IMG/VR virus record: IMGVR_UViG_2837658290_000001
Coordinates: 1,897-65,896 of that record
DNA: 64,000 bases
Source of the DNA: a virus
Taxonomy: Duplodnaviria; Caudoviricetes
Direction: 5' to 3' (one strand)
The notes beneath the pieces are model-generated. The model worked only from the letters and a program-made list of their open reading frames with translations. It ran no database searches and was not told where the DNA came from. Positions 5,512-64,000 of this stretch are shown here, one piece after another. The stretch's first letter is position 1. The number at the start of each line of letters is the position of its first letter. The translations under genes and the position numbers were made by a program.

Positions 5512-8064
5512 GTGATTGATCTCAACGATGTCTACGTGCCCTCAGCCCGCCCTGATCTGGGTGTCGTCCGGGACAGGCTGGCGGCGACAGCCCGTGACTG
5601 GCTGCCGGGGCTGTTTCCCGAGGCACGGCTGACCCATGACCGGCGCGCCCTGCGCTGCGCGGATCTGTCGGGGCGCCGTGCCCGCGCCGAGGGCTCCTGT
5701 CTCATCCATCTCGACGGGCCTTATGCGGGCTGGGGATTTGATTTTGCCACGGGCGAGCGCGCGGGGCCGATCGACCTCATTTATCATGCCACGGGCCTGT
5801 GTGACGGGCGGCTCTATGAGGAAGCGGCCCGGCTGGCGCAGATGGCGCGCGACGTGCCGGGGAGGCCGGATGCACCGCGACGCCCTGACCACAGCCTGGA
5901 AATCCGCCGGATCCTCGATGGCTGTGCCCCATTGGCAGGCAGTGTGGCGCAGGCCTACCTGCAGTCGCGGGGGCTGGCCGCCCCCCGGTCACCGGACCTG
6001 CTCTTCCATCCCGATCTGACAGATTATGACAGCCGACGTGGCTGGCCGGGCATGGTGGCGATCCCGCGTCTGGCCAATGGCGAAGCTGCCGGTGGCCTGC
6101 ACCGTACCTTCCTGCTCGATGACGGCAGCGGTAAGGCGCCGGCTGGCAAGAAGATGCTGGGATCTGTTGGCGGAGCAGCCGTGCGGCTCCTTCCGATGGC
6201 GGAGGACGGGCATCTTGGCGTTGCCGAGGGGATCGAGACGGCGCTCGCAGCCCGGGCGATATTCGGCATTCCGGTCTGGGCGGCACTTTCCGCCGATGGC
6301 GTGGCGCGGTTCCAATGGCCCGAAGGCACGCGGCGCGTCACGATCTTTGCCGATGCGGGCGCCGCCGGGCGTCAGGCTGCGGCCGGTTTGTCGGACCGCC
6401 TGAACAGGGCGGATATCCCGAACGGGATTGTTGCTCCGCTGCATGGCGATGACTTCAACGACGATCTGCTCAAAGGGGCCCTGAAACCCGATTACGATAT
6501 TGGGGCGTTTGTGCCGGATGTTCAGCCTGCGGTCACTGCTGCGGCGCCCGACCCGGAACACCCGGCCGGGGCGCTGGCCGCTGCGACAGAGGCGCTGACG
6601 AACCCGCCCGATCTGACGGATCTCGGAAGCCTCATGGGGCGCGTTGTCATGGCGCGGCTCGAGCCGATGGAAGAGCGCCATGTGCTGTCGCTGATCAAGG
6701 CCCGCACGGGCATCGCCATGTCGATCCTCGATAAGCAACTCGGTGTGCTGCGGCGCCGGCTCAACAGCTCCGGCGATCTTTTGAAACCGGTGGCGCGCCC
6801 CGCCTGGGCCAGCCGGTTGCGGCTGGACCTTTCCGGCACGCCCGAACGCAATGAGGCCAATGTCATCATCGCGCTCGGTTCCGACCCGGCCTTCGCTGGT
6901 GCAATCGCCTTTGACGAGTTCCGCCAGGAGGTGGTGGTGCTGCGTCCCATGCCCTGGGAGGAGGCAGAAACCGATTGCCCGCGGCCCTGGGAGGACAGCG
7001 ACGACATCCGGCTGGCAGAATGGCTGCAGCATCGGGAGGTCAATGTTGCACCGCTGGTCGTGGGGCGCTCGGTGGGTGCCGTCGCACGCGAACATCGCAT
7101 TCATCCGGTGCGCGCCTATCTCGATCTGCTGCAATGGGATGGCGTGCCCCGTATCGAGACCTGGACCAGCCGCTATCTCGGGGCAGAGCCCACCGATCTG
7201 AGCCACGCGATGGGCAGCCTCTGGCTGATCTCGGCGGTCGCGCGCATTTGTCGTCCCGGTGTGAAAGCCGACCACATGCTGATCCTTGAAGGTCAACAGG
7301 GCGCGCGTAAATCCACAGCGCTGAAGATCCTTGCCGGGGAGGACTGGTTTACCGACGAGCTGCCCGATCTGGGCTCCAAGGATGCGGCCATTCACATGCA
7401 GGGGGTCTGGATCGTGGAGATTGCCGAGCTCGATGCCATCGGCCGGGCCGAGGTCTCGCGGATCAAGGCCTTCCTCACGCGCACCACTGACCGGTTCCGC
7501 CCCCCTTATGGTCGCCACACCGTCGAGATCAGGCGCCAGTGCGTCTTTGCCGGCACCGTAAATCCTGACACCTACCTGCGCGATGAAACCGGCAACCGCC
7601 GCTTCTGGCCGATCCGCTGCGGCGAGATCGACATCGAGGCGCTCCGCCGGGATCGCGATCAGCTCTGGGCCGAGGCTGTGGCCCGCTTCAGGGCCGGGGC
7701 CATCTGGTGGCTGGAAGACCGGGATCTGCTCAAAGCTGCGCGCGACGAGCAGGACAAGCGATACCAGTCCGATGCCTGGGATGGGCTGATCGATCGCTGG
7801 CTCACCCATGAAATCCGGGTCGTCGGCGACAGCTTCTCCTCCTTTGATCCGCCCCGGCGGGAAAGCGTGCTGCGTCGCGAGCCGCTGGGGGATGTCTCTG
7901 TCGGGGAAATCCTTGAAGAAGCCATCGGGATTGAGCCAGCGCGCTGGAACCGTGTCGATCAGATGCGCGTGTCCGGGTACCTGAAGAAAAACGGATGGGA
8001 ACGGTACCGGACGTATGACGTCGTTGATGGCAAAACGGCGCGGGAGTGGCGGTATCGGAGGTGA
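5512..8064 (+). CDS. TOPRIM primase fused to VapE-type helicase/ATPase (replication protein)
   Basis: AEGIETAL, FADAG and DFND TOPRIM motifs; GQQGARKST Walker A; D..R.PYG and DETGNRRFWP VapE motifs. Confidence 0.92.
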   Translation: MIDLNDVYVPSARPDLGVVRDRLAATARDWLPGLFPEARLTHDRRALRCADLSGRRARAEGSCLIHLDGPYAGWGFDFATGERAGPIDLIYHATGLCDGRLYEEAARLAQMARDVPGRPDAPRRPDHSLEIRRILDGCAPLAGSVAQAYLQSRGLAAPRSPDLLFHPDLTDYDSRRGWPGMVAIPRLANGEAAGGLHRTFLLDDGSGKAPAGKKMLGSVGGAAVRLLPMAEDGHLGVAEGIETALAARAIFGIPVWAALSADGVARFQWPEGTRRVTIFADAGAAGRQAAAGLSDRLNRADIPNGIVAPLHGDDFNDDLLKGALKPDYDIGAFVPDVQPAVTAAAPDPEHPAGALAAATEALTNPPDLTDLGSLMGRVVMARLEPMEERHVLSLIKARTGIAMSILDKQLGVLRRRLNSSGDLLKPVARPAWASRLRLDLSGTPERNEANVIIALGSDPAFAGAIAFDEFRQEVVVLRPMPWEEAETDCPRPWEDSDDIRLAEWLQHREVNVAPLVVGRSVGAVAREHRIHPVRAYLDLLQWDGVPRIETWTSRYLGAEPTDLSHAMGSLWLISAVARICRPGVKADHMLILEGQQGARKSTALKILAGEDWFTDELPDLGSKDAAIHMQGVWIVEIAELDAIGRAEVSRIKAFLTRTTDRFRPPYGRHTVEIRRQCVFAGTVNPDTYLRDETGNRRFWPIRCGEIDIEALRRDRDQLWAEAVARFRAGAIWWLEDRDLLKAARDEQDKRYQSDAWDGLIDRWLTHEIRVVGDSFSSFDPPRRESVLRREPLGDVSVGEILEEAIGIEPARWNRVDQMRVSGYLKKNGWERYRTYDVVDGKTAREWRYRR

Positions 8065-8169
8065 CAAGCCGATGGCTGAATATCTTTCAGTAGCTATTCT
8101 CCGTGTGAGTAGACGGCTCAATCTTTTCAGTTTGTTTCGCCGCAGAGATATCGCGAAATAAAAATTTTG

Positions 8170-9798
8170 TCATTTTCTTATTCCAAGAGCTGCAAAAAGC
8201 ATTGGGTGAACGCTAAACTTGGTAGAGGCTTCAATCTGGTGTGGTGAAACTGGGCGAGCGGAATCATAGATCCAATCCCAAGGGCGATCCTCTCTCAATT
8301 TTAATCCAATTGCTCCAATCAAATGAAGTCGATAAAGAGCCTCTTGCGCCAGCTCGGCAGCCTCAAGGTTTATATTGCCGTTGACATAATCGACCAATTT
8401 CTTCCATAGGTCGTCGTTATGGCAATCGGATTTTTTACCAAGCGCATCGTATAGTTCTTCCAGAAGCTTGCTGTGCATCAATTCTGAAGCACTACGATAA
8501 GCTGGTTTTCCTCTTAGAATTTCAATTACTTCACTAATTGCCGGGAAGGTTCCTGACCATTCGTGGATTAATGTTTCGTGTCGAAGGTTGGAGTAGTTAG
8601 ATTCTCCTCGCAAGAATGCATTTTTACTTACCGCTGATTTTCCCTCTGCAGCTTGTAAGGCCAAGTTGATAAAGTTTATTACATCTCGCGGCCGGTTCAG
8701 TGTGCGCGCGACGAGATACTCCCAAGGTGCAGTGCGTGTGTCGGGGTATTGTTTGAAGACATCGTCAAATGAAACATTTTCGGAAGAGTATTTCCACCTA
8801 AATAGTTCTCTAATTCGTTTTTCAGCCAAAGTTCGAAGTTGCGACTTCGACCACCTTAACCGTATGATCAGGTCTTCATATTTTTCAATCTGACGTTGGG
8901 ATGACGGTGTTTCCTGTACCATGCGAATGTACAGATCATTTCGCAAAGCAACGGCGACTTGAAAATTTCTCAGTTTTTTTAAGCTTTTTAGGCACTCAAA
9001 CAGCGATTGAAGCAGTTGAAATTTTATATCGTCATCAACCCAGTGCTCGTCCAGCCCATCGACTGTAATATAGAATTTATCTTGCCGGTCGCGCGTATAA
9101 TCTGAGAGTGCAGAGATTACAGTGGGTAATTCAGATATGGTTATGTCGTTCAAAAACTTTTTAGCTCTCTGTTGTAGTTGGACTTTCTGCTGACTTCCGA
9201 GGCTGTGAAGATAGCCAGCTTTCCCGACAAATTTCTTCATTTCGCCGCCAAAGTTGGTGCTAAATTCACGTTCAAGTGAATCGGAAAGTTCAATCACGTT
9301 CTCGTCAACAGTATTCCAAAACTGGTCCTCATGATCGTTAACAAACTTTTCGAGTTTCTCTCGCTGTTTGCTGCGTGTTATCGCATCAAAGATTTTCGAT
9401 ATCTTAAATCTAAACTGGTCTTTACTAGGCGCCTCTAATGCGATGCGTATGTATTCGATACAAAAAACATGCTTCCACAGAGCTTGAAAAAATAGAGTCA
9501 GATCAACATCTAGTCCTTGGAGAAATGCAATTGTATCGCTGTTTGCAATATGGTTCATAGCCATATCGTGGACGATCAATTCAGAGCAATTCTCCAAATT
9601 CCGCCCCATCATTCTTAGGATGGCAGTTTTTCCAGCCCCAGTGCTTCCCAGCAAAAATGTGCTTGGGCTGTTTGTGTCGATTAGATCGCTGTATGATGGA
9701 TGGTCTACGAAACATTTAAAAAGAAATTCATCATCGTGCTCGGCGCCATTTTGTCCGATATTGACACCCTCTTTTAGAACTATTTTGTTTGCGTTCAT
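8170..9798 (-). CDS. Low-GC P-loop ATPase (Sll1717/FunZ-like), candidate anti-phage cargo
   Basis: 542 aa; G...AE.D near the N-terminus, GSTGAGKT, ITVDGLDE, ALRND and RPRDVI; sharp GC drop; opposite strand to the phage operon. Confidence 0.8.
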   Translation of the reverse strand: MNANKIVLKEGVNIGQNGAEHDDEFLFKCFVDHPSYSDLIDTNSPSTFLLGSTGAGKTAILRMMGRNLENCSELIVHDMAMNHIANSDTIAFLQGLDVDLTLFFQALWKHVFCIEYIRIALEAPSKDQFRFKISKIFDAITRSKQREKLEKFVNDHEDQFWNTVDENVIELSDSLEREFSTNFGGEMKKFVGKAGYLHSLGSQQKVQLQQRAKKFLNDITISELPTVISALSDYTRDRQDKFYITVDGLDEHWVDDDIKFQLLQSLFECLKSLKKLRNFQVAVALRNDLYIRMVQETPSSQRQIEKYEDLIIRLRWSKSQLRTLAEKRIRELFRWKYSSENVSFDDVFKQYPDTRTAPWEYLVARTLNRPRDVINFINLALQAAEGKSAVSKNAFLRGESNYSNLRHETLIHEWSGTFPAISEVIEILRGKPAYRSASELMHSKLLEELYDALGKKSDCHNDDLWKKLVDYVNGNINLEAAELAQEALYRLHLIGAIGLKLREDRPWDWIYDSARPVSPHQIEASTKFSVHPMLFAALGIRK

Positions 9799-9895
9799 CT
9801 AAGTCTCTTTGATTGTAGCGTTTTATTTTTCTGGATGTGCGTTTTGCTTGATATGCGGACACTCGCCGCCGGATCGGTAGAATGCCGCCTCTTTC

Positions 9896-10031
9896 TTATC
9901 CAGAACTGGGAAGATCGACCAAGGGATCGATGAGACCATAGAGGCCCCGTGAATCTCGGGGTGCCTGAATGGTCGGCAGAGGTGTTGCTTCGAGAAGATG
10001 AGCAAGCAGATCTTCAGCAAAGAAGTGCATT
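9896..10031 (-). pseudogene. Possible truncated GIY-YIG-like nuclease fragment
   Basis: Short frame ...APRDSRGLYGLID... resembles a GIY-YIG N-terminus but ends before any YIG motif. Confidence 0.3.
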
Positions 10032-10122
10032 GAAAGGCTCCGGATCAAATTGCCAGCGGCGGATGGCGCTGAGCGCACAGAATGACGTTGCCCCCGAACC
10101 TTAATCCGGGGGCTGCGTGGTA

Positions 10123-10941
10123 TTACTTGCGTCTCTCCAGGGCCTGTCGCTGCCTGATCTGATCGTCTACAGCGATCACGGTGGCCAGTCGTTTTTCATC
10201 CGGCGGATGGGTGCCCCAGAAGCTGAGTTTGCCAGCCTCCGTCCGGGCTTTTTCGGGCCGGGCGAAGAATTTGGCACCCTTGACCGGGTCGTATCCGGCC
10301 GCCGCAGCGATGCGCGTCCCAAGGGTATCGCTTTCCAGCTCATAGGACTGCGAGTAAGCCATGCTGCCCGCGGCCGCGCCGATCTGCATGTTCCGGTCAA
10401 TCGCATTCGGATCGTAATACTGACCCGCTGCCGCCGATTGCGAATTCGCATATGCGGTAATCGCACCAAGAATGATCGCCCCCACCAGGGCTTGCTGCTT
10501 CTGCTTCTCGATGTGGCGGCCAATCAGATGCCCATATTCATGGCTCATAATGAAGGCGACTTCGTGATCGCTTTCGGCATCCTGCAGGATGGGCATGGAC
10601 AACCGGATGACAGGTTTTTCCTTCACATAGGTGAAATATGCGTTGCGCTCTTTCATCTCGCGATCGATCTGGATCGAAACCTTGCAGTCGAAACCCTGTC
10701 GTTCCGCAGTTTCCTGAGCGCAGAGTTTTTCCGCCACGGGGGCAACCCGTGCGGCGACACGCCTGAAGCGCCCCTCGGCAACGTTTTTGGAAGCCTGCGA
10801 CCTGTTGGTGTCGTTCTTCGCCTGCTGGAACATTGTCTGGGCGCGGGACGCAGAGCTTTCGTCCAGGTCAGGCAAAACATAGGTCGTGCCACATCCGGAA
10901 AGTGCAGCGGTAATTCCAAGTACTATCAGACCTTTGCGCAC
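10123..10941 (-). CDS. M48-family zinc metalloprotease lipoprotein
   Basis: Signal peptide with LSGC lipobox; NAY, HEYGH, ELESD..G and THPP...R motifs; GGAGGAG RBS. Confidence 0.92.
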   Translation of the reverse strand: MRKGLIVLGITAALSGCGTTYVLPDLDESSASRAQTMFQQAKNDTNRSQASKNVAEGRFRRVAARVAPVAEKLCAQETAERQGFDCKVSIQIDREMKERNAYFTYVKEKPVIRLSMPILQDAESDHEVAFIMSHEYGHLIGRHIEKQKQQALVGAIILGAITAYANSQSAAAGQYYDPNAIDRNMQIGAAAGSMAYSQSYELESDTLGTRIAAAAGYDPVKGAKFFARPEKARTEAGKLSFWGTHPPDEKRLATVIAVDDQIRQRQALERRK

Positions 10942-11220
10942 ACGATTCTCTCCTCCGATCTGGTTTTATGACTACTTTTGATAAGTGCGAAAATATCTCT
11001 TCGCAACCATGGGAATGCATTTCGCAGGACGCGGAGGAGGTTCGGAGAGCCGCCGTTGGCAGTCTGGCAAGAGGTGTCAGGGTAGTATGATTGGCTGTTT
11101 TTTCAGTGGATGCTGGCATGGCGGCCATGAAAAACACCATGCAAGGTGTTCGGGCTTGATTGAGAATAAACTTTTCTGAACCGCTTTCGTTTTTTCCGCC
11201 AAACCTGGGTTCCGTTCCGT

Positions 11221-11520
11221 TTGTCCCAACCCTCATGTTTGTCCCAACCTCGTCCTAACCTCAGCAAGGGGTTGGGACGAGAATTTCCCGTTTGATTTCA
11301 ACGTCGTCCCAACCTCCCCCCTTTTGTCCCAACCTTTTTGCTTACTTTGTATGTGGAGTATGGAACCACCGGGAAAACCTACACGCTATATGAAAAAGGT
11401 AGGGGAGGGGTTGGGACGAGGACAGGTTGGGACAATATTGCTTATGCTGTTGATAATAATTAACTAAATTCCGTCCCGACCTCTGCTCGAGGTTGGGACG
11501 AGACGAGGAGGTTGGGACAA
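11221..11520. repeat. Iteron array, putative phage replication origin
   Basis: GTCCCAACC at 11223, 11241, 11306, 11326 and its reverse complement GGTTGGGAC at 11270, 11409, 11425, 11491, 11510; one-mismatch copies at 11252 and 11473; AT-rich tract about 11435-11470. Confidence 0.8.
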
Positions 11521-11639
11521 AACTGAACGGTCCGAAAGTGTATCACTTGCCCTGCGGTTTTCCTTGTCTGTCACTCTGCGGCAGGTTAATTTGCCCTTGA
11601 CCAAAGCCGAAGGCCCACTCGAACTCGTGAGCCTTCACC

Positions 11640-24831: not shown

Positions 24832-25464
24832 ATGCAGCTTGGTGTTGAGGTCAGTGGTGATCTGGTCGCGATTATGGCGGCCGAGATCCGCGCAGGTGAA
24901 AAGGCTGTGAGCCTCGCGATGCGGGAGGCCGGATCCGGGCTCAAAGCTGACTGGCGCGGGCAGATCACCGGGGCCGGGCTGGGGCAGCGCCTGGCACATT
25001 CGATCCACAGCGCCTCCTACCCGAAATCCGGCGACAGTCTTGAGGCGGCCGCCCTGGTCTGGTCGAAAGCACCGGTCATTGTGGGGGCGCATGATGCGGG
25101 GCCGCTCATTCGCTCGAAATCCGGCTTCTGGCTGGCGATCCCGCTGCCGGCGGCGGGCAATGGCGTGGGTGGCCGGCGGATGACACCCGGCGAATGGGAA
25201 AAACGCCGCGGGCTGCGCCTGCGCTTTGTTTATCGCCGCCGTGGCCCCAGCCTGCTGGTGGCGGACGGACGGCTCAGCAGCAGGGGTCTCGGCGTGGCCT
25301 CCCGCGCGAAATCAGGCCGGGGCCGGGCCAGCGTGCCGATCTTCCTGCTGGTGCCGCAGGTCAGGCTGCTCAAGCGGCTGGATCTGGCGCGGGACGCGGC
25401 GCGTGCGCAGGCGGAGCTGCCGGGGCGGATCGCAAAACACTGGGTGGCGGGGAGGTTGGGATAA
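24832..25464 (+). CDS. DUF6441-like neck/tail completion protein
   Basis: Basic 210-aa protein (LK..WR.QI..AGLG.RLA, WLAIP, PIF.LVPQV.L) in the head-tail region. Confidence 0.7.
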   Translation: MQLGVEVSGDLVAIMAAEIRAGEKAVSLAMREAGSGLKADWRGQITGAGLGQRLAHSIHSASYPKSGDSLEAAALVWSKAPVIVGAHDAGPLIRSKSGFWLAIPLPAAGNGVGGRRMTPGEWEKRRGLRLRFVYRRRGPSLLVADGRLSSRGLGVASRAKSGRGRASVPIFLLVPQVRLLKRLDLARDAARAQAELPGRIAKHWVAGRLG

Positions 25465-25555
25465 AGAAAAGGCGACGACACAGGGAGGAGGAGGTGTCGT
25501 CGCCTTGTTCGAACTGGCTCCAGGGAGGAAGAAAAAAGCCATCCGAGTTTCTGAG
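25462..25555 (-). ncRNA. Cuckoo/CcsR/alpha-r14-like sRNA with anti-Shine-Dalgarno loops
   Basis: Minus strand: hairpin TGGCTTT-ttcTTCCTCCCt-GGAGCCA, then a 13-bp perfect stem AAGGCGACGACAC/GTGTCGTCGCCTT whose loop region carries CCTCCTCCC, then a U-tract. The 5' end is approximate. Confidence 0.7.
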
Positions 25556-25656
25556 ACTTGAAATAGGGAGTTTCTGCGCGTGCACAATAGGGGAAGGGCG
25601 AATAGCTGATCTGCGCTGAGTGCAAGGCCCAGCGAGGACCTGTCGTGAAGACGTCG

Positions 25657-25740
25657 TGGTGCCCCCTGCCGGACTCGAACCGGCACGCCCGCAGGCAGAA
25701 GATTTTAAGTCTCCAGCGTCTGCCATTCCGCCAAGGGGGC
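25657..25740 (-). tRNA. tRNA-Leu (anticodon TAA)
   Basis: GCCCCCT/AGGGGGC acceptor stem, anticodon loop CT-TAA-AA, long variable arm, GTTCGAGTC T-loop, encoded CCA; 84 nt. Confidence 0.95.
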
Positions 25741-25742
25741 TT

Positions 25743-25818
25743 TGGTAGGCCCGGCAGGATTTGAACCCGCAACCAAAGCGTTATGAGCGCTCTGCTCTGA
25801 CCGTTGAGCTACAGGCCC
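25743..25818 (-). tRNA. tRNA with CAT anticodon, most likely tRNA-Ile2 (lysidine, reads AUA)
   Basis: GGGCCTGTAGCTCAACGGTCAGAGC...CT-CAT-AA...GTTCAAATC...ACCA; 76 nt; C4-G69 and C5-G68 pairs (TilS determinants) and no initiator features. Confidence 0.9.
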
Positions 25819-26025
25819 GCTGGGTGGGTTGAACGCGAATATGCGCGAATGGTCAAGGTGGCGCGGCGGAAATCTGCGGGTCGCGAGATCTCAGGGCAGA
25901 GAGCAGGTATTCAGAAGGCTGCGGATCAGCAAGACCGATTGCCAGCAACCCTGTTCTCTGCAATTGGGTTGGCAGCGTCCCGCACCTCACGGGCGCGTTC
26001 AGCGCACGTCCCCCGGGAGCAGACC

Positions 26026-26649
26026 GTGACCCTCGAACTCTGGCTTCTTTATCTGGCGGCGGCGATTGGCTTGTCCCTCACACCTGGTCCGAATGGGCTG
26101 CTGTCGGTGACGCATGGCGCATGCTATGGATTCCGGCGGACCGTTTTTACGGTTCTGGGCGGTGCGCTGGGGTTTCTGATCCTGATCGGGGTGTCTCTGG
26201 CGGGGCTGGGGGCGCTCCTGGCGGCATCCGGCAGCGCATTTGAAATCGCCAAATGGATTGGGGCGCTTTATCTGATCTACCTGGGGCTACGGGTCTGGCG
26301 CGCTCCACCCCCTTTGGCTGACACTGCCGTGTCAATGTCCGGAGCGTCTGCGTCGAGGCCGGCCCGGTTGTTTTTCCAGGGGTTCTGGGTGGCGGTTTCC
26401 AATCCCAAGGGGCTGGTGTTTTTTGCAGCGTTTCTGCCGCAGTTCATGGTTCCGGGCGCTTTTTTTCTGGTTCAGCTTGCGATATTCGGGGGCACTTTCG
26501 TGCTGGTCGAGATCGCCTATGAGCTTCTGCTCGCCCGGCTTGCACAACGGGTGGCGCCCTGGCTTTCAAAGTACGGGCGTCAGTTCAATCGTGTGACAGG
26601 TGGCGCATTCATCTGCCTTGGTGCGGTTCTGACGACCGCGTCGCGCTGA
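26026..26649 (+). CDS. LysE/RhtB family amino-acid exporter
   Basis: TPGP, KWIGA.YL.YLG and NPKG..FF.AFLPQF motifs; hydrophobic; GGAG RBS before GTG. Confidence 0.92.
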   Translation: MTLELWLLYLAAAIGLSLTPGPNGLLSVTHGACYGFRRTVFTVLGGALGFLILIGVSLAGLGALLAASGSAFEIAKWIGALYLIYLGLRVWRAPPPLADTAVSMSGASASRPARLFFQGFWVAVSNPKGLVFFAAFLPQFMVPGAFFLVQLAIFGGTFVLVEIAYELLLARLAQRVAPWLSKYGRQFNRVTGGAFICLGAVLTTASR

Positions 26650-26759
26650 CGGTATCAACGCGCAGGTCCGGAAAAAAATGAAAATCCAGGCGCGAGGTGG
26701 TTTCGACATCTCGCTTGAGGGTTGAGTGCCGGGCGGTTAGCATCTTCGAAAAACAGGAG

Positions 26760-28064
26760 ATGATGATGCAGATCTTGAAATCCGGGATACCTTTTCTGAT
26801 TGCGGCTCAGTTCGCGCTGCCCGTTTGCGCGCAGACGGCTGATAGTCTGCGCGCAGAGCTTGATCTTGTGGTTACTCAGATCGAGGAGGCGGATGCGACG
26901 ATCGCGCGGTTTGACGGAGGGCTGATCCGTGCGCTTGCCGAGGCGAGAAAAGAAGCGCTTTCGCTTTCGGAAGCTGTGATCCGGAACCGCATTCTTGGTC
27001 TTGAAGGGGGAAATGCCGTTGAAATCGTCATTCCGGCTGTGCAACCCGATGACGCCCGGGCGACCCGGATCCTGGGGGAAATAGCTGCAGCCCAGAGCCG
27101 GATCGCAGAGGCCGAAAAGGAAGCGGCGCGGGCCGGTGGTCTCATTCAGGCGGTAGCGCTGAGCCGGGTCGAGACCGAAAAGCTGACCCTTGCGCAGCTG
27201 CAGATGGGATATTTCCAGGCAAAATACGGGATCGCTTTCCCCAATTCAGTTGCTTTGGCACCCCCTCCGTCCTCAGGGTCGGGTAGCGGCGAACCGGAGC
27301 CTCTGAGCACGGCACAAGATACTGCGACCGGTGAGGCCGAAACCTTGCCCTGGGCGGATAAACGGTTTCCGCAGATCGACTATTCGCTGCAGCCGTTCGA
27401 GCAGGCGCATAAGGATGGCGACAGGATTTCGGGGTGGTGGTCGATCGAAACCGAGCGGGCGGTTGTCGATGACAGTCCAAAAGTCGTTGCAATCAACTAC
27501 TCGAATTTCGAGCCGGGCAGCTACAGCGGGTTCACGGGTTTGCTGGCGCGCTGCACTGAAGGGGAAACGGCACTGGTGTACATTCAGGATGACTACCTGA
27601 TGACGGATTTTCGGCGCAACAGTTTCGATATCACCTACCGTATCGATGATGCTCCGGCACAGCAGACGAGATGGAACAGTCTGACGAACAACAAGGGCGC
27701 GGGTTTGTTTGGCCGGGAAGCGGAACAGTTTCTGCGCAGGATTTATGATGCCAAGAGCCTCTTCATCCGTCTGGTCGAAAAAAATGGCCAGCGCCACGAT
27801 GCGGTATTTGATCTTTCCGGGGGGCAGGATGCTGTTGAAGCGGTTGCATCGGCCTGCGGGTGGTCGACGCTGTCACTGTCACCGGAGGACTACAAGGCCA
27901 TTCAGACCATGCTCAATGCAGGTGGGTTCGAGGCAGGTACGCCAGATGGCCGCTGGGGCGCGGGTTCAAAGCGCGCGCTGAAGGCGTTTCAGGCATCGGT
28001 TGGATTGCCTGAAACCGGCGCCCCGGACCGTGCGACTTTGACCAGGCTTGGTTTTGGGGAGTAA
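26760..28064 (+). CDS. Secreted protein with coiled-coil N-terminus and C-terminal peptidoglycan-binding domain
   Basis: AGGAG RBS; signal peptide; C-terminal IQTMLN..GF..G.PDG.WG..S..AL..FQ...GL..TG (PG_binding_1); middle domain resembles VasI/TagO-like proteins (tentative). Confidence 0.8.
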   Translation: MMMQILKSGIPFLIAAQFALPVCAQTADSLRAELDLVVTQIEEADATIARFDGGLIRALAEARKEALSLSEAVIRNRILGLEGGNAVEIVIPAVQPDDARATRILGEIAAAQSRIAEAEKEAARAGGLIQAVALSRVETEKLTLAQLQMGYFQAKYGIAFPNSVALAPPPSSGSGSGEPEPLSTAQDTATGEAETLPWADKRFPQIDYSLQPFEQAHKDGDRISGWWSIETERAVVDDSPKVVAINYSNFEPGSYSGFTGLLARCTEGETALVYIQDDYLMTDFRRNSFDITYRIDDAPAQQTRWNSLTNNKGAGLFGREAEQFLRRIYDAKSLFIRLVEKNGQRHDAVFDLSGGQDAVEAVASACGWSTLSLSPEDYKAIQTMLNAGGFEAGTPDGRWGAGSKRALKAFQASVGLPETGAPDRATLTRLGFGE

Positions 28065-28086
28065 AGGTCAGCCCATTCAGAATTGC

Positions 28087-28122
28087 GTCCATATGGACTT
28101 GAAATATAGGTCATATGGACTT
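28087..28122. promoter_or_regulatory. Putative Xre antitoxin operator
   Basis: Perfect palindrome GTCCATATGGAC (28087-28098) and near-copy GGTCATATGGAC (28109-28120) upstream of the TA pair. Confidence 0.65.
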
Positions 28123-28151
28123 ATTCTTTGGGTGAAATGGAGGGTTTGTCT

Positions 28152-28541
28152 ATGGAAAGCGTGGTCAGCGAACGTCCGGCGGCCGCAGTGCAGGCTGTTG
28201 CGTTGAAGGCTTTCAGTCGGATTGCCGAGGGCTGGTCACTTACCGGCCGCGAGGCAGCGGCGCTGGCGGATATGTCCGAGTCGACCTGGAAACGTGCCAG
28301 GAAGCCAGGATTTTCCGGTGAATTGACACGCGATCAGATGTTGCGGCTCAGCGCGCTTGTCGGGCTCTATAAATCACTCGAACTGTACTTCAGCCCGGCA
28401 ATTGCGGGGCAATGGGTCAAGCTGAGCAACCGGGGGCCGGAATTCGATGGTCAGCGCCCACTGGATGCCATGGTGCATGGGGGCCTTCCCAAGATTTTGC
28501 GTGTCCGGACTTATGTGGATGCCCTGCGGGGTGGCGTTTGA
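28152..28541 (+). CDS. Xre/MbcA/ParS-type antitoxin
   Basis: N-terminal HTH (W.L...EAA.L...S.STW.R); C-terminal W....N...F.G.RPL..M...G...VR.Y.DA.RG; GGAGG RBS. Confidence 0.88.
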   Translation: MESVVSERPAAAVQAVALKAFSRIAEGWSLTGREAAALADMSESTWKRARKPGFSGELTRDQMLRLSALVGLYKSLELYFSPAIAGQWVKLSNRGPEFDGQRPLDAMVHGGLPKILRVRTYVDALRGGV

Positions 28542-29230
28542 AGATTACGGCTCTGAACGACCGGGGACTGGTTCGCCTGATCCCGGCCACTTATCACAAG
28601 CCACCCGTGTTGCGTGGGCTTGTTGACAGTGATGAAGAAGCGGCAATCCTGGCTGAGCTCGAAGGAGAAACCAGCACACGCCTGATCGCTGAACGGGAAG
28701 GCAGTCCTGCACTTGACCGGCGCGAACTGGTTTTTGAACGACGGGCTCATGACCTGAATGTTTATGGTCAGAGCCACATCAACGCGGCCTTCTCATATAC
28801 CCGGCCGACAGGGAACCGCTTCAATGGTGGTGAACGTGGGGCATGGTATTGCAGCTTTGATGTTCTGACCTCTGCCGAGGAGGTTGCCTATCACAGGACG
28901 CGGGAGCTCAGCTTCATTGGCGTTTTTGACGACGAGGCCAGATATGTGGAATTGCTTGCCGACTTCATAGGTGACTTTCCGGATCTGGCAGACGAGAGCG
29001 GACATCCGGCGCTGAATCCCGATCCGGCGACAGGATATCCGGCCGGACAGTCTCTCGCGACGGCTCTGCGCCAGGAGGGTCATCGGGGTTTGCTCTATCC
29101 ATCGGTCAGGCGCACGGGCGGGGCATGCTTTGTGGCATTTGATCCCGGCATTATTCAGAATGTGAGGCCGGGAGCGAGCTGGAATATCTCCTGGTCGGGT
29201 TCGCCGGAGTATTCCATCGAAGGGCTCTGA
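28538..29230 (+). CDS. RES-domain toxin (NAD+ phosphorylase family)
   Basis: TTGA overlap; RFN...GAWY, E..YH and G..YPSVR (R-E-S) motifs. Confidence 0.9.
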   Translation: MKITALNDRGLVRLIPATYHKPPVLRGLVDSDEEAAILAELEGETSTRLIAEREGSPALDRRELVFERRAHDLNVYGQSHINAAFSYTRPTGNRFNGGERGAWYCSFDVLTSAEEVAYHRTRELSFIGVFDDEARYVELLADFIGDFPDLADESGHPALNPDPATGYPAGQSLATALRQEGHRGLLYPSVRRTGGACFVAFDPGIIQNVRPGASWNISWSGSPEYSIEGL

Positions 29231-29298: not shown

Positions 29299-29718
29299 AT
29301 GCCCACCCTCCGCGAAACCCTCCTCACCAGCCTGCATGCGCGGCTGTCAGCCCTGCCTGCTTCGGTTCTGCGCGGGGAGGTGCTGCCTGAGCGGGTGCCG
29401 GCGGGAGGGGTTGTGATCCTGAGGGATGGCGATCCGGGGGAGCCGGAGGTGACGCTGTCACCGCTGCGATATCACTATGCGCATCGGGCCGAGCTTGAGG
29501 TGGTGGTGCAGGACAGGGAGCGGGATGCGGCTTTCGACACCCTTTGTGCAGGCATCGGGACAGCACTCGCTGCCGACCGTACGCTGGGCGGGCTGTGCGA
29601 CTGGGTCGAGCCGGAGGCGCCGCGGCCGGTGGATCTGCCGGTGGAGGGGGCGGCCAGCCTGAAGGCGGCCGTCATCCCGGTTGTGCTGCATTATACGCTG
29701 GCAGACCCGCTGGCGTGA
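29299..29718 (+). CDS. Tail terminator/completion protein
   Basis: RDGDPGEPE, ADRTLGGLCDW; located before the tail tube gene. Confidence 0.75.
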   Translation: MPTLRETLLTSLHARLSALPASVLRGEVLPERVPAGGVVILRDGDPGEPEVTLSPLRYHYAHRAELEVVVQDRERDAAFDTLCAGIGTALAADRTLGGLCDWVEPEAPRPVDLPVEGAASLKAAVIPVVLHYTLADPLA

Positions 29719-46569: not shown

Positions 46570-48741
46570 TTAAGGGCGCATGATTTTGCTGGGGTGTCCA
46601 GACCACGAAATCCGCAATGACTTCTTCGCCCGAGTGGCGGCGACGTGCAGAAGGGAGCGATACTGAGTGACGATATCTTCGCGATCAGCTGCATCAACGG
46701 CCGATTTCAGTGCCCCGGGCGGTGGGAAGGCGGACTCGGCCAGGAAGGGGATCGCCACGGCGAAAAACTCCAGCCCCTTGGCGCGGTGCATTGTCGTGAT
46801 CCGGACCCCGGGCACGGACCGGTCATCAGCGCCAGCCTGGAGAACCACTGTCTCGATACCGTCCGCCCGCAGCGCCGCGCTAACGCGCTCAACATCTGCG
46901 CGGCGCGCACAGAGGATTCCGATGTCCGAAAGTCGCACGTTTTCCGATGGGAGACTGCGAACCCAGGTTGAAACCCCTTTCAGTTCTTCGACTTCCGAAG
47001 TGCAGCCGACCAGTTCAGGCGACACACCATGCAGGAGGCTGACATAGCCCTTGAGGGTATCGCTTCCCTCATCGAGATCATCGACGCTGACGCCTTCCAG
47101 AACCGAAACAGCCCACGACCTGATTTCCTGCGTCGTCCGGTAGTTGAGCCTGAGCCGCTTCGAGCGGCCGCGCACGTTGATCCCGCAGCCCGCCATACTG
47201 GCGCGGCGCCCATAAATCCTCTGGTGCGCATCGCCCACGATGAAAAGGGAATTTCGATCCCCGGATGGACCTTCCGGGACGATCGCCCGGATCAGACGGA
47301 AGGCCTGCTCGCCCATGTCCTGCGCCTCATCCACGATCACGGCCGCATAGGGGAGGTTCGGTGCCTCGGAGGACAGGATTTCGATCGCTTCACGATAGGC
47401 ATCATCCGGCTCGGCGAGCCCCTCACTCACCACTCGGGCTCGATAGTCAGCGAAGATGTCCCATAGAGCGGCCCGTTTTCGGCGGTCAAGCGGCGTACCG
47501 CGTCCGGCCCGGGATACCTTGAGGTAGGCCCTTTGATCCATCAGACCTTTCGCCTGAACGATCTGTGCCCATTCCGCGCGGATGAACGGTTCCGAGAGGC
47601 CCTCGGGAAGCTCATGGTCGTCGAACACTTCGCGCCAGATCTGGTCCAGCCGGTCCCGCGCTTCCCCGAAGAACGCGACCTCGCGGGCGAAGCTTTTGCG
47701 CTTGAGGAACTGGGAGACCCAGCGATCGAGGTTGATCACTTCGATCCGGGGCGGCCGGGCAGCCAGATGCTCCGGGCAGAGGGTCCGGAGGTTCGCTTCG
47801 ATATCCTGTGCGAGACTGGTCGTGAACGTGGTCAATAGAACCCTTTGACCGGCCCTGGTCAGATCCTGTTCGATCTGATCGGCTAGGTGCTTCGCCCGGT
47901 GCATGGCGACGACGGTTTTCCCGGTCCCGGCGCCCCCGCGCACCATGGCCGGGCCGTTATAGTCCCGGTAGGCGAGCTTGCGTTGATCGGGGTGCAGGAA
48001 CACCCGCCAGCCTTCGAGCCCTTCCTCGAAGACGCGCCGCAGTTCCTTTTCATCTTCGGGGATGAAGATGGTCTGGCGGCTCTCCTCGGTCTCGATCATT
48101 TGATCGAAGGTCAGGTCGGCCGGTGGGGTTTCCGGGGCGGTTTCCGTCTCTTCCGGAACGCCCGTCAAAGCATAGACTTCCTCGTCGGAATAGCCCGCAG
48201 CGAGCGCATAGAGGATCTGATAGGTCAGCGGGTCGAACCCCTCTTCCGCCTCTTCGAGCCCCTCGATCGATGTAAGCGCCCGGACGGCTGGGATTTCTTC
48301 GTCCGGAACACCGAGGGCCTTCAGCCGTTTATCGGTCACTGCCGAGAACAGTCGCGGCTCTTCCGCGACTTGGGGCGCAGCCTCGACGACGGTCACGTCG
48401 AGTTCCTCAACGACGCGGATCCGGTTCGTGTCCGGGTCCAGTTTGACCCGCCGGTTTCCGGCCCAGCGGTAGGCCTTGTCGTGTTCGTTGACGTGCACGA
48501 ACATGATGTCGCGGCCGACCTCGAAAGCGATGGCCCGGTACCCCTGATCGACCCGGAGGGATTTGATCGAGCTGTCTTTCGCACCCTCCACAGTCTCGAG
48601 GTTGAGCCCGTTCGCGGACGGGTCCGACATATAGCGGGTCATCATATCCATGAAGCGCAGCGCCACCTTGTCGGGGAGCTTCCGCAGGCTTTTCATGCAG
48701 CCGATGTCATAGGAGACCCGCTTGTTGATCGCGTCCATCAT
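46570..48741 (-). CDS. UvrD-like SF1 helicase with N-terminal RelE/ParE-like domain
   Basis: GGAGTGKT, DEAQD, GD.HQRIY, NYRTT, TMHRAKGLEF, VAATRA; N-terminal GLNLE....D..SLRV..GYRAI...HD.AY.WA. Confidence 0.92.
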   Translation of the reverse strand: MMDAINKRVSYDIGCMKSLRKLPDKVALRFMDMMTRYMSDPSANGLNLETVEGAKDSSIKSLRVDQGYRAIAFEVGRDIMFVHVNEHDKAYRWAGNRRVKLDPDTNRIRVVEELDVTVVEAAPQVAEEPRLFSAVTDKRLKALGVPDEEIPAVRALTSIEGLEEAEEGFDPLTYQILYALAAGYSDEEVYALTGVPEETETAPETPPADLTFDQMIETEESRQTIFIPEDEKELRRVFEEGLEGWRVFLHPDQRKLAYRDYNGPAMVRGGAGTGKTVVAMHRAKHLADQIEQDLTRAGQRVLLTTFTTSLAQDIEANLRTLCPEHLAARPPRIEVINLDRWVSQFLKRKSFAREVAFFGEARDRLDQIWREVFDDHELPEGLSEPFIRAEWAQIVQAKGLMDQRAYLKVSRAGRGTPLDRRKRAALWDIFADYRARVVSEGLAEPDDAYREAIEILSSEAPNLPYAAVIVDEAQDMGEQAFRLIRAIVPEGPSGDRNSLFIVGDAHQRIYGRRASMAGCGINVRGRSKRLRLNYRTTQEIRSWAVSVLEGVSVDDLDEGSDTLKGYVSLLHGVSPELVGCTSEVEELKGVSTWVRSLPSENVRLSDIGILCARRADVERVSAALRADGIETVVLQAGADDRSVPGVRITTMHRAKGLEFFAVAIPFLAESAFPPPGALKSAVDAADREDIVTQYRSLLHVAATRAKKSLRISWSGHPSKIMRP

Positions 48742-51700
48742 GTGTTCATCTCCTGTAGTGCCTGTATAACTCTGGTGACCGTCTCGCCGATTGGATCGCT
48801 CTCCGGATCAAACGGGATGAGCCGCCAGCTCCCCCCCTCGCATGGCGTTTCCGCGATCGCGACGCCAGCCCCCTCCCAGCCAAACTCCATCATCCCCACG
48901 ACCCGCCCCTCGACGAGGAGGTCATCCCCGAACCGGTCCGGGCCTGGCACTTCGGCTGCGATCAGGGCGTCGATCAGGGGGTGGAACAGGTCATCACAAA
49001 GGGCCCGGGCCTCGAGCCAGGCTTCGGTGTCCGCATCCGTCGGCCCGGTCCCGACCGACATATCGGGTGGCGAGAGCGTGTCGAGACCCGCCAGTTCAAC
49101 GTGGAAACCGCGCACTCCCTGGAACAGATTGACGAGCCGCCAGAGACCACGCCAAGCCTCGGCGTAGAGGGCTTTCGCCGCAGGTTCGTGGCCCGGATCA
49201 GGGAGTTCCGCGCGCAGTAGAAGTCGAATATCGGCGTCTGTTCCCGCCCATTCCGTCGGAGAGATCTGCTTGCAGGCCAGATAGAGGTCGAGCACTCCCG
49301 CCCCGACATGCTCCGTCAGGCCCGGTGTCAGCAGGAACTGCCGCCCCTCTTCCGTCAGGGAGGCCTGGTGTGGCAGCTGATCGAGCGGACGCCCGGTCGC
49401 AACGAAGCCCCGGGTCAGAATCGAACGGCCCGGAAGTCCATCGTCCCGTGCACCATCCAAAAGGCGCCAGAAACCCTCAAGGGAGCTTTCCCCCTGAAGG
49501 GCACGGACACCGTCGATGTGATCTGCGAAGCCCGGGAAGGCGCACACCCGGGCGAGCCGTCCGACCTTCTCCCCGCTCAGGGCCGGTTCCGAGAGCGGAT
49601 TAAGGTAGGACCGGTTCTCTGCGTCGAGGTCTGCCCAGGCGAGGGTCCAGACCCTAACCTGACCAGACCGGATCATCAGGATCCGGTCGAGCAGGTCCTG
49701 GGCGACGGTATCGGCGTGATACTCAAGGCCATCCATCTCCAGAACGACGGGCACCGCTCCGGTCTGACCGGTGGGTGTAAGAAGGAAATCGACCCGTTTG
49801 CGGGGGAGACCCTTGAAACGGGCATCGATCTGCACCTGGGGTTCGATCGTCCAGAGACGAGGCCGGTCTTTCGGACCCGCGCGCAGCACAAAACCGCGAC
49901 GCCCGCCCGAGAGAACCTGCGGGGTCAGTGCATCGTCCCCATACCGGTTCGCAAGGGCGTTCAGGAGGCGCTTCTCAAGCGCACTTTCGACCATGGCGTC
50001 CCGGATCGACGCGTCGATCCCGGTCTCGGTCCGGCTGAGGCTGTCCCACTTCTGCAGGATCGCGTCCATCATTTGACGGGCTCGATCCCGATCCGGCTCG
50101 CCAGGTCCGAACTGGAAGCGGTACGGCTTCACGCAGCGGAAGCAGCCGTTCCGGTCCGGTTCCTGGTTACAGGGACAGTCCCGTAGCGCCTCCGCCGCAC
50201 GACTGATCACCGCCTTCATCGTGTCCGGGTGCTCACCAACCTGTCGCAGATACCCGGACCCGCCAGGGACCGCATCATAGAGGTAGAGGCTGCGGACGGT
50301 GGTCATCCCGTCGAGCTGGGCTGCGAAGATCGTGGAGCGGAGGTGGTCGACCTTCCCCGCGAAGTGTCGGCGCATGCCAAGGTTGATCGCCGCGACGAAG
50401 CTCTTCAGATCATCGTCATCCGCCTCGCCGACGACTGGGATCACGATCCGGATCGCTTCGGTATCAAACTTCCGCATCAGGAAGACCCCGGTCTCCCATC
50501 TCTCACGGGCGAGATCCGGTTCGCGAATGACCTTACAGCTAGGCGGATGGGTCCCACGATCGTCCTGGTCCTTCGCCGGCCTCTGCAGCGTGCCGCAATG
50601 ACGGCAGATCAGGAACGGCTGCGCGGGTCTCTTCTCGCCGGCGATTTTCGGGCCAGGAAGTGCGGATTTCGGGCCGAAGTTGAAATCCCGGAAGGTACAA
50701 TTGGGCAAGAACTCGAACCCGAAGGGCGCACCATTGTCCCGGCTCGTGAACCACGAAGAGGCGATGTCTTCCGGCCCGTGGAAGGGCATGAGAACTCGGT
50801 CGAACTGACGCTGGTCGCGCTGATCCCCATCTCGGATCGCTGCCTTCTCCTCGCTGTCGACAGAGATCACGGATTTGAGCTGGACGACATCGTGGTTGGA
50901 CCCAGAGTCGGACCACATCTCATCCCCGCAGCGCGGGCATGTGTTGGTTTCCGCGCCCTCAATCCGGTGCGCGACATGGGAACAGGAGGGACAGAAGGTC
51001 CAGCGGTTCAGATCTTCCTTCCCGATCTCAATCCTCTCGATTTCGACCTGTCGCCCGTTCGCATAGAAGAACTGGCCCGGTGCGAACTCTGACAGGGCCG
51101 AGCTGGCCGGTCGGGAATACTCCACGTAGAGAAGTCCGTCCTCGTCCTTCGACGCGGTCTTGGAAGGATCGTTGCGGCGCGACAGGATCGAGGTGAGTTT
51201 CACGCCCTCTTCCGGGAAGGCGTAGTTCGGCAGGATCCCTTTGTCGGTGAGGAATTTGATAACCGCCACGTCGTCGATCCCGCTGCGGATCAACCGGTTG
51301 ATCTCGGTTCGGTCACGCGCGATCTCGCCCTCGCGATTCTCGAACTCGTCATCGGTCAGCTCGGCGCGCCGTTTCCGCAGCCGGGTCAGCTCCTTCGTGG
51401 CCTCCTCGCGCTTCTCGATCAGTCGAGCCTTCTCGGCGGCAGCGCCATCGAATGCCGCGCCGATCCGCCATCCGATCGAGGTTTGATCAGTCCCGGTCAG
51501 GAAGCCGCGAACCCGGTTCACCAGGTCAGTGCGCGCCTGAACATCTGGCGGAAGCCCTGCCAGGAAGGCCGTCGCCAACTCGTCCCCTCTGGCTCGGACC
51601 AAATCCAGCCATTCAATGGGGAAACCCTCCGTCGCCCCGGAGGAGCGGCGTTTCAGGACATCGCGCACCTTCCCGTAATCCCCCGCCTCGGCGGACGCCG

Positions 51701-55142: not shown

Positions 55143-55143
55143 C

Positions 55144-60045: not shown

Positions 60046-60049
60046 CCGC

Positions 60050-63858: not shown

Positions 63859-63875
63859 TTTGCACTCCCAATTTT

Positions 63876-63898
63876 GCGTGTAGGAAAAATGTACACGC
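63876..63898. promoter_or_regulatory. Putative WYL-repressor operator
   Basis: GCGTGTA-N9-TACACGC inverted repeat 17 bp upstream of the start codon; extra TACACGC half-site at 63956-63962. Confidence 0.65.
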
Positions 63899-64000
63899 CC
63901 ATTTTCTGTGCTGTTGGAGATGTTAGAGGAGTGCTTCTGCGCAGGCAATCGAAAATACACGCAAAGCGGGAAAAGTTCGCGCTTCTATGGGTTTGAATAA

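Follow-up and report, generated by a model that had tools for sequence, protein, structure and literature searches.

The closest described systems

Phage-borne tRNAs for rare codons are exemplified by the ileZ-argN-argO genes of the Shiga-toxin phage 933W, and a tRNA reading UUA is familiar from Streptomyces, where bldA is the only UUA tRNA of its host and is developmentally regulated. The moron concept comes from lambdoid and HK97-like phages. The CcsR or "cuckoo" small RNAs (sRNAs) are well-studied stress regulators of Rhodobacter and rhizobia; the members described up to now lie on chromosomes and plasmids. According to the main texts of two studies (PMC8034643, PMC4615179), the ccaF1-CcsR1-4 operon of Rhodobacter sphaeroides is transcribed from an RpoHI/RpoHII promoter and the CcsR sRNAs are released by RNase E, each with two loops carrying the anti-Shine-Dalgarno (anti-SD) motif CCUCCUCCC; CIN1 (DUF1127/ccaF1) is the only conserved neighbourhood that these texts report for the family in Rhodobacteraceae. 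Here we analyse a block of two tRNA genes and one CcsR-like RNA that lies antisense in the late region of a siphovirus-like element, IMG/VR record IMGVR_UViG_2837658290_000001. The window, to which all positions refer, is the whole stretch of 64,000 nucleotides (nt) analysed.

The 64-kb window makes up nearly the whole of a 65.9-kb contig from a 3.79-Mb genome of 64% GC. As judged from its genes and setting, the element is a siphovirus-like prophage integrated in a Thalassovita-like marine Rhodobacteraceae bacterium: a genus-mate, G003, carries a 96-97% identical element inside a complete chromosome, which indicates an integrated prophage. We consider it moderately probable that the block is an RNA-only moron, in which a rare-codon tRNA cassette typical of the phage lineage was joined by a captured, promoter-bearing CcsR unit, both directed against the late operon. 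Its parts are, in the order of their putative transcription:

25852..25857, minus strand: TTGACC, -35-like box of a putative tRNA promoter, 33 nt upstream of tRNA-Ile2 (sequence, blastn and alignment)
25743..25818, minus strand: tRNA-Ile2(CAT), ARAGORN and Rfam (67.7 bits), CCA encoded, 75 of 76 positions identical to host C5:285824-285899
25657..25740, minus strand: tRNA-Leu(TAA), ARAGORN and Rfam (53.2 bits), CCA encoded, long variable arm
25552..25656, minus strand: spacer between tRNA-Leu and the sRNA, holding the putative sRNA promoter (fold, sequence)
25563..25588, minus strand: RpoH-type promoter motif ATTGTGCACGCGCAGAAACTCCCTAT, homologous by alignment to the chromosomal ccaF1-CcsR operon promoter
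25467..25551, minus strand: single-unit CcsR/ar14 "cuckoo" sRNA (sub-threshold full-length Rfam matches, genus model R1, fold)
25463..25470, minus strand: U tract UUUUCUUU of the predicted intrinsic terminator, abutting the DUF6441 stop codon (25462-25464, plus strand)

The tRNA cassette

tRNA genes were called with ARAGORN, and the Rfam tRNA gathering cut-off was 29 bits. In the window ARAGORN called exactly two, which share the minus strand and are separated by 2 nt. Of the 49 tRNA genes in the host genome, one is a tRNA-Leu(taa) and five are CAT tRNAs, which fall into three sequence types: two copies with C1/A72, presumably the initiator signature; a second distinct type, taken for the elongator tRNA-Met; and a third type at C5:285824-285899. 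The CAT tRNA of the window is 98.7% identical to the third type and 69-70% identical to the two others, its matches among 5426 E. coli genomes comprise only three records, all annotated as tRNA-Ile, and the host encodes TilS (169 bits against a cut-off of 93.6). On these grounds it is assigned to tRNA-Ile2, in which C34 would be converted to lysidine (k2C34).

The single difference between phage and host tRNA-Ile2 lies in the D loop, and the whole anticodon arm is identical. The phage tRNA-Leu(UAA) shares only 72% identity with its host counterpart (28% of positions differ) but has the same anticodon loop, CUUAAAA. The chromosomal tRNA-Ile2 sequence is identical across the four genus genomes compared, and the phage alleles depart from it by one position in the window phage and in G003, by three positions in an allele common to the G014 prophage, a metagenome-assembled genome (MAG) labelled Marivita (L058) and two viral contigs, and by six positions, with compensatory stem changes, in the G008 phage. 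The tRNA-Leu anticodon stem covaries likewise (GGAGA/TCTTC in the window, AGGGA/TCCCT in G008, AAAGA/TCTTT in L058), and the anticodon loops of the cassette are invariant among the phage alleles.

The cassette occupies the same position, between the DUF6441 and tail terminator genes and always antisense, in G003, G008, G014, L058 and the viral contigs L129 and L130. Four of these loci belong to the 152 related loci described below, and a DNA search of 61 relatives added G008 and G014. The set in G003 comprises Ile2, Leu and the sRNA; in G014 an Ile2 gene is accompanied by a decaying Leu copy; G008, L058, L129 and L130 carry Ser(tga), Leu(taa) and Ile2(cat), and these three genes fill a gap of 304-309 nt. 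The cassette is kept where the DUF6441 genes share only 70-75% identity, across at least two genera as labelled and in the two viral contigs. The 105-nt spacer was considered as a remnant of the tRNA-Ser of these relatives; the comparison was made by eye only and did not establish it.

The CcsR-family sRNA

The sRNA begins about 105 nt past tRNA-Leu. When the 202 nt following tRNA-Leu were folded, two strong terminal hairpins resulted (z-score -2.88). Hairpin 1 (25546-25509, minus strand) carries the loop motif CUUCCUCCC at 25531-25523, one mismatch away from CCUCCUCCC; hairpin 2, the terminator (25506-25469, minus strand), carries the exact motif CCUCCUCCC at 25491-25483. In a permissive Rfam search, 25433-25551 matched ar14 (43.2 bits) and 25467-25551 matched CcsR1 (32 bits), each over the full model length.

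The chromosome of the host holds a canonical counterpart for comparison. In the locus C5:76770-77480 (minus strand) ccaF1 (DUF1127, 72 amino acids) precedes four tandem CcsR units at 76774-77154, which have a single terminator past the fourth. These ccaF1-linked units score 59.2, 39.3, 35.4 and 32.8 bits against the CcsR1 model, all below threshold, and CcsR1 matches occur in 18 of 18 genus genomes without one exceeding the gathering score. Since no chromosomal unit of host or genus reaches it, the threshold does not separate members from non-members here: the Rfam CcsR1 model under-calls this genus. A covariance model, R1, was built from 65 chromosomal units of the genus, the prophage copy being excluded; its training units score 74-84 bits. 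Against the window R1 gave a sole match, 25467-25549 (49.9 bits, E 4.6e-8), covering the full model length with 17 of 19 pairs standard. Against the 3.79-Mb genome it matched exactly five places, the four units of the cluster and the prophage sRNA. The hairpin RNA is accordingly classed, on homology and fold, as a complete two-hairpin member of the CcsR/ar14 "cuckoo" family. The simpler proposal of only a terminator is contradicted by the second hairpin, the R1 and Rfam matches and the promoter homology. Beside the prophage sRNA no DUF1127 open reading frame (ORF) is present; its flanks are tRNA-Leu and DUF6441, and the CIN1 context is thus lacking.

Much of the preliminary description of this DNA withstood the analysis. 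The two CCA-ending minus-strand tRNA genes 2 bp apart were recovered by ARAGORN, Rfam and inspection of the sequence, and their isotypes, Ile2(CAT) and Leu(TAA), agree with the identity to the third host type, the E. coli tRNA-Ile matches, TilS and Rfam. The TTGACC box lies where it had been placed, upstream of the tRNAs (25857-25852, minus strand, 33 nt before tRNA-Ile2). The hairpin reported about 100 bp past the tRNAs is real and lies some 105 nt past tRNA-Leu; a second hairpin had been missed. Its naming as an anti-SD sRNA is borne out by the family membership (Rfam, R1), the antisense placement by the plus-strand genes on both sides (24832-25464 and 29299-29718), and the proposed check for host copies found both tRNA-Leu(TAA) and tRNA-Ile2 in the host.

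Promoters and transcription unit

The region 25741-25857 is 85.8% identical (blastn) to the chromosomal tRNA-Ile2 and its upstream region in genus-mate G015; the likeness reaches 37 nt upstream of tRNA-Ile2 and includes TTGACC. For the sRNA, the motif ATTGTGCACGCGCAGAAACTCCCTAT aligns with the ccaF1-CcsR promoter regions of the host, G003, G006, G011 and G013, and 23 of 29 positions, counted by eye, are identical to the G006 ccaF1 promoter. A pattern of 21 specified bases, with at most one mismatch allowed, matched four times in 18 genus genomes, namely two ccaF1 promoters and two prophage copies, and the reversed pattern gave no match in the same genomes. The promoter has the elements TTG and CCCTAT; RpoH promoter features were taken from PMC3441632. 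The host encodes RpoH (366 bits) and a second paralogue (274 bits), from which we infer that the sRNA would be induced under stress by RpoH-type sigma factors of the host. Neither the TTGACC promoter nor the terminator of the sRNA was picked up by a generic sigma-70 promoter and terminator scan, which is uninformative here; the 12-nt loop of the terminator exceeds its limit.

Folding of the spacer (25552-25656) revealed no intrinsic terminator between tRNA-Leu and the sRNA, and hence transcripts from the tRNA promoter should also run to the sRNA terminator. The tRNAs and the sRNA are thus probably co-transcribed, and the sRNA as well as the tRNA transcript probably stops at the U-tract terminator.

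The arrangement recurs in independent assemblies. Contigs of four metagenome runs from four studies span the block, including its junctions: the DUF6441-sRNA junction in run X2 (25294-25587), the sRNA-tRNA-Leu junction in run X5 (25371-25685), and the junction between tRNA-Ile2 and the LysE gene in all four runs. One X5 contig joins 25820, the 5' end of tRNA-Ile2, to 29365, at the start of the tail-terminator region, with a flank of 36 nt; it weakly suggests, the flank being so short, that phage forms lacking the LysE-RES segment circulate.

The insertion slot and its neighbourhood

The block is located at the head-tail junction of the late region. Gene assignments in the window were set by homology. 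On its left the plus strand encodes replication and head genes (small and large terminase, portal, protease-capsid fusion, decoration protein, head-closure-like protein and DUF6441); beyond the block follow the tail terminator, major tail protein, chaperones, tape measure, distal tail proteins and a tail protein of 2246 amino acids. As the flanking genes are on the plus strand, the RNA block is antisense. The borders of the slot and the remainder of its insert are:

24832..25464, plus strand: DUF6441 (phrog_6367) gene, left border, by homology
29299..29718, plus strand: tail terminator gene (phrog_4204), right border, by homology
26026..29230, plus strand: rest of the slot insert, with a LysE-family exporter, a PG_binding_1 protein, an Xre-like antitoxin and a RES toxin
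26026..26649, plus strand: LysE-family exporter
26697..28064, plus strand: PG_binding_1 protein of 455 amino acids, domain C-terminal
28128..28541, plus strand: Xre-like antitoxin
28412..29230, plus strand: RES toxin

Related loci were fetched through the DUF6441 protein, 152 in all (72 from genomes, 80 from IMG/VR), of which 132 hold both border genes in order. Between these the genes abut in 30 (gap of at most 6 nt), 3 have a 77-nt gap, and 99 have inserts of 290-3039 nt; the gap of 3834 nt in the window is the largest. The DUF6441-tail terminator slot is a moron hotspot. In keeping with a moron, the border genes of the block adjoin each other in relatives, and the block has putative promoter motifs of its own and a terminator.

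In G003 the segment 26026-29230 is absent and a different 1.66-kb segment stands beyond the tRNA 5' end. The LysE ORF at its annotated length (from 25804) would overlap tRNA-Ile2, which makes the GTG at 26026 its probable true start. Capture of LysE together with tRNA-Ile2 was considered and set aside, no close LysE homologue being found beside the chromosomal tRNA-Ile2 in the loci examined. Paralogous Xre/RES pairs occur in the same genome on contigs C8 (61-63% identity) and C14 (31-33%).

The right arm of the window (46570-63960, minus strand) holds five genes that look like a DISARM/Druantia-like hybrid defence island: a WYL regulator, a DrmD-like SNF2 helicase of 983 amino acids, a type IIG/DrmMI-like methylase of 1650 amino acids with a low-GC middle part, a DruE-like DEAD helicase of 2134 amino acids with MZB/DUF1998, and a GajB-like UvrD helicase. 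The same bacterial genome contains a second, related prophage on contig C13 (54.3 kb), corresponding to window positions 11700-46350 and 63034-63785. Its tail genes are 92-95% identical to those of the window and other parts 69-86%. In place of the defence island it has 13 kb of cargo of 52-54% GC with four large ORFs, bounded by the same WYL-gene segment. This sibling has no tRNA genes, and about 1.1 kb fills its DUF6441-tail terminator slot.

Codon usage

ORFs of the host and relatives were called with a crude caller that sometimes chose the wrong strand in high-GC DNA, and the codon figures for these genomes are approximate. In the host, TTA (0.69 per 1000) is the rarest and ATA (1.48 per 1000) the third rarest sense codon among 1,031,832 codons of 2670 ORFs; TTA is already present in 494 of the 2670. 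Among the roughly 19,200 codons of the window genes are 18 TTA and 49 ATA, distributed as follows (per 1000 codons):

Late genes: TTA 0.39, ATA 1.03
Early genes: TTA 0.74, ATA 3.47
Slot morons: TTA 0.93, ATA 3.73
Defence island: TTA 0.69, ATA 2.07
Low-GC ATPase: TTA 12.9, ATA 20.3

The ATPase (8170-9798, minus strand; 42% GC) has 7 TTA and 11 ATA in 542 codons and the methylase (55144-60096, minus strand) has 2 TTA and 10 ATA; apart from the methylase, the defence genes carry few of either. ORF 10117-10971, with 2 TTA and 7 ATA, is the second most ATA-rich. The ATPase itself is an AAA-type protein of 542 amino acids with weak Pfam matches only, and a PADLOC search gave no match to it. The preliminary description had named TTA and ATA as typically rare in high-GC genomes and had seen them in spot checks of the low-GC cargo; both statements hold here, as the host frequencies and the counts in the ATPase and the methylase show. 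Its view that the tRNAs are not for lytic growth holds for the plus-strand structural genes: the late genes avoid TTA and ATA, and the block therefore does not serve their translation.

The G003 prophage, which diverges from the window after 46262, lacks the window segment 7971-11580 (3.6 kb, with the ATPase and ORF 10117-10971) and has 690 bp in its place, and it has kept the tRNAs and the sRNA.

Orphan CcsR units on other elements

Across the family, R1 matches occur in at least 93 of 121 genomes. An orphan CcsR-like unit was found in locus L039 (G006:C11, 8149-8232, minus strand; 51 bits with R1) with the same type of promoter. Its neighbours encode a Strawberry-notch-type helicase/methylase of 1480 amino acids, DUF6915, DUF3768 and a ParB-like protein, a setting that resembles an integrative and conjugative element (ICE) or a plasmid. 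An exact two-motif scan of IMG/VR gave 19 stretches, four of them with R1 at E of 1e-4 or less and two with ar14 scores of 40-41 bits. Cuckoo-like RNAs with two hairpins lie on the high-GC contigs L216 (6033-6115, minus strand), L231 (2752-2835, plus strand), L224 and L219; that of L216 stands between a CI-like repressor gene and the single-strand-annealing and exonuclease genes of an unrelated prophage.

On the strength of three cases, the window prophage, the ICE- or plasmid-like region of G006 and the unrelated prophage L216, cuckoo sRNAs might be mobile modules that phages and other elements take up together with their stress promoter, and that phages might combine with tRNAs into a translation-control moron. 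This we put forward as an improbable speculation; if true, it would explain the scattered distribution of the family.

Proposed function of the block

As an RNA-only moron the block would consist of two modules that differ in origin. The first is the cassette of the phage lineage, Ile2-CAU and Leu-UAA (plus Ser-UGA in relatives), which would duplicate single-copy host tRNAs for rare A-ending codons and be transcribed from a homologue of the chromosomal tRNA-Ile2 promoter. The near-identity of the phage Ile2 to the host copy means that host TilS and IleRS should accept it. Its likely effect would be additional decoding of AUA and UUA for any AT-rich gene acquired horizontally, the low-GC cargo included, and not for one gene set. 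The second module is the orphan CcsR unit, which is fused directly to a copy of the ccaF1-CcsR promoter, without ccaF1 and with its own intrinsic terminator. Its transcription would be turned on by host RpoH-type sigma factors in heat, oxidative stress or stationary phase, and it would act like CcsR1-4, its two C/U-rich anti-SD loops pairing with the Shine-Dalgarno regions of target mRNAs. Read-through from the tRNA promoter would include the sRNA, which tRNA-processing enzymes and RNase E would then release. Of this account, the genes and the families they belong to, the homologies of the promoters, the slot and the codon counts are observed, while sigma-factor dependence, co-transcription, expression, targets and benefit are what we infer from sequence.

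On the improbable reading as a translation-control moron set out above, tRNA processing would release a phage-made global modulator of translation from a joint tRNA-sRNA unit, and a prophage under RpoH stress could re-weight both initiation (anti-SD) and elongation (rare tRNAs) of the host in its own favour. Although tRNA genes are frequent in phages, their role in temperate ones is still argued, and this is a clean case in which the structural genes do not need the phage tRNAs: codon avoidance in the late genes, the hotspot position and the consistently antisense orientation point to a role on the side of the lysogen.

Several observations weigh against the account of an RNA-only moron with two modules. 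The sRNA does not reach the Rfam gathering scores (32 against 65.3 bits for CcsR1, 43.2 against 58.8 for ar14), and its loop 1 has CUUCCUCCC and not the exact motif; some chromosomal units deviate too, 5 of the 66 units listed having the exact CCUCCUCCC in only one loop. No obvious target with extended GGGAGGAGG complementarity was found at any start codon in the window, where GGGAGGAGG occurs twice, inside the primase ORF and as the complement of the sRNA itself. Among the 152 related loci (about 1.0 Mb) R1 matched the sRNA in only one, L057, the prophage of G003; its restriction to the window prophage and G003 implies a single acquisition and so offers no independent sign of selection. In G003 the region of the tRNA promoter differs, homology ending at 25820. 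In G014 (L015, about 9950-10036) the tRNA-Leu(TAA) beside an intact tRNA-Ile2 is decaying, with substitutions in the stem and the 3' end and no CCA, and neither ARAGORN nor Rfam called it. Codon usage adds to this: relative to the host, the prophage is enriched in TTA only 1.35-fold (p = 0.21) and in ATA 1.73-fold (rank 13), and the codons most over-used by the prophage, measured against the crude host ORFs, are CTC (3.2-fold), AGT (2.8-fold), AGG (2.2-fold) and CGG (2.1-fold). A plain model of codon compensation would not lead one to expect this tRNA set. The departure from host usage, mainly in G/C-ending codons (CTC, CGG, AGG and AGT), is a hint that the long-term host or the mutational regime was another.

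Alternative explanations

The block could instead be passenger DNA, host fragments caught in a recombination-prone slot and serving neither phage nor lysogen in any selected way. The slot does take unrelated inserts (99 of 132 loci), tRNA-Ile2 and the sRNA, each with its promoter, clearly come from bacterial chromosomal genes, and both the decay of the G014 tRNA-Leu and the single acquisition of the sRNA would fit. We nevertheless regard this as unlikely, because the cassette persists at 70-75% DUF6441 identity across at least two labelled genera and two viral contigs, with compensatory stem changes and invariant anticodon loops, and because in the sRNA the two hairpins, their loop motifs, the promoter and the terminator are all retained. 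A purely cis-acting element, whose hairpins or convergent transcription would insulate or attenuate the late operon, for instance as antisense to read-through past DUF6441, draws on the position of the sRNA, which abuts the DUF6441 stop and is fully complementary to plus-strand read-through, and on the relatives, where the cassette would run antisense into DUF6441 with no terminator between. An insulator, however, needs neither a match to a trans-acting family nor a promoter; the hairpin on the plus strand is not followed by a T tract, and 30 of the 132 loci do without any insert. Such a role is hence very improbable.

The remaining alternatives concern the tRNAs. The preliminary description held that the block is expressed in the lysogen and licenses the translation of AT-rich defence cargo, with which it would be co-adapted, much as bldA does for the TTA genes of Streptomyces. 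TTA and ATA are indeed very rare in the host, those of the window are concentrated in low-GC genes (the ATPase alone has 7 of 18 TTA and 11 of 49 ATA), and the right arm is a real defence island (DrmD, IIG methylase/DrmMI, DruE-like and GajB-like helicases). The claim nonetheless finds weak support and we think it rather improbable: G003 keeps tRNAs and sRNA without 7971-11580; the cassette alone, with no adjoining cargo, fills the slot in G008, L058, L129 and L130; the C13 prophage has its 13 kb of 52-54% GC cargo and no tRNA; the TTA enrichment, which is not significant, counts against it as well; the low-GC ATPase has no PADLOC match; and a host with its own tRNA-Leu(UAA) and tRNA-Ile2, and TTA in 494 of 2670 ORFs, leaves nothing strictly to be licensed. 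The same description offered, as its other option, the replacement of tRNAs that anticodon nucleases have cut, which can be widened to host tRNAs depleted by other defences aimed at them. The phage tRNA-Leu(UAA) does differ from that of the host at 28% of positions, but tRNA-Ile2 is host-identical at 75 of 76 positions, its one change being in the D loop, and the tRNA-Leu loop CUUAAAA is the same, so a nuclease acting on the anticodon arm (Ile2) or loop (Leu) would cut phage and host tRNAs alike. No gene for a known tRNA nuclease was recognised next to the block; RES domains target NAD. Although such counter-defence is established for other phages (PMC10865867), escape by this route is here a poor prospect. 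In tRNA-dependent lysogeny, described for actinobacteriophages in the same article, a host tRNA gene is destroyed on integration and the phage copy takes over its function, for which a phage Ile2 nearly identical to the host gene would be suited. The chromosomal tRNA-Ile2 is, however, intact in four of four lysogens (G000, G003, G008 and G014), the chromosomal tRNA-Leu(TAA) is full-length in the same four, and the 57-72 kb around the prophages of G003, G008 and G014 contain no tRNA remnant, which leaves this explanation with hardly any credit.

Comparison with known systems

A literature search returned no phage-borne CcsR or cuckoo member; the supplementary tables of PMC4615179, with 321 loci, were outside its scope and might hold some. 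The word "phage" is absent from the main texts of PMC8034643 and PMC4615179. A phage-borne RNA of this family thus appears to be undescribed. The RNA-only moron proposed here would show, through a prophage copy with the host promoter but minus ccaF1, that phages borrow a host stress RNA together with its wiring, and it would offer a natural experiment, a single CcsR unit without CcaF1 and a tRNA operon as delivery vehicle of an sRNA.

The prophage sRNA shares with CcsR1-4 of R. sphaeroides and with the Rfam families CcsR1 (RF02791) and ar14 (RF02344, including NfeR1 of Sinorhizobium) the two adjacent hairpins of similar size, the anti-SD motif CCUCCUCCC in loop 2, the terminal intrinsic terminator, the Rhodobacteraceae host and a promoter homologous to that of ccaF1-CcsR. 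It differs from CcsR1-4 as a single orphan unit, without ccaF1, located in a prophage and next to tRNA genes, with one mismatch to the motif in loop 1 and scores under the Rfam gathering thresholds.

The tRNA genes resemble those of temperate phages for which codon compensation is assumed in carrying a CAU tRNA-Ile2 that reads AUA. In contrast to these, they lie antisense at the head-tail junction, do not match the codons that the phage over-uses most, and include one tRNA nearly identical to a host gene. With bldA, a tRNA-Leu(UAA), the phage tRNA-Leu has in common the anticodon and the reading of the rarest codon of a high-GC genome; since the host here keeps its own tRNA-Leu(UAA), the phage copy would add dosage and not act as a switch. 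The locus also differs from tRNA-dependent lysogeny (Guerrero-Bustamante and Hatfull 2024, PMC10865867), the host tRNA genes being intact. With morons and prophage sRNAs (PMC13501541) it shares the build of a self-contained unit between genes that adjoin in relatives, one that may be expressed from a repressed prophage. Unlike usual morons, its cargo is RNA only, and its sRNA copies a host regulatory RNA together with the host promoter. By these comparisons the phage tRNAs are ordinary, and the sRNA is the more unusual part of the block.

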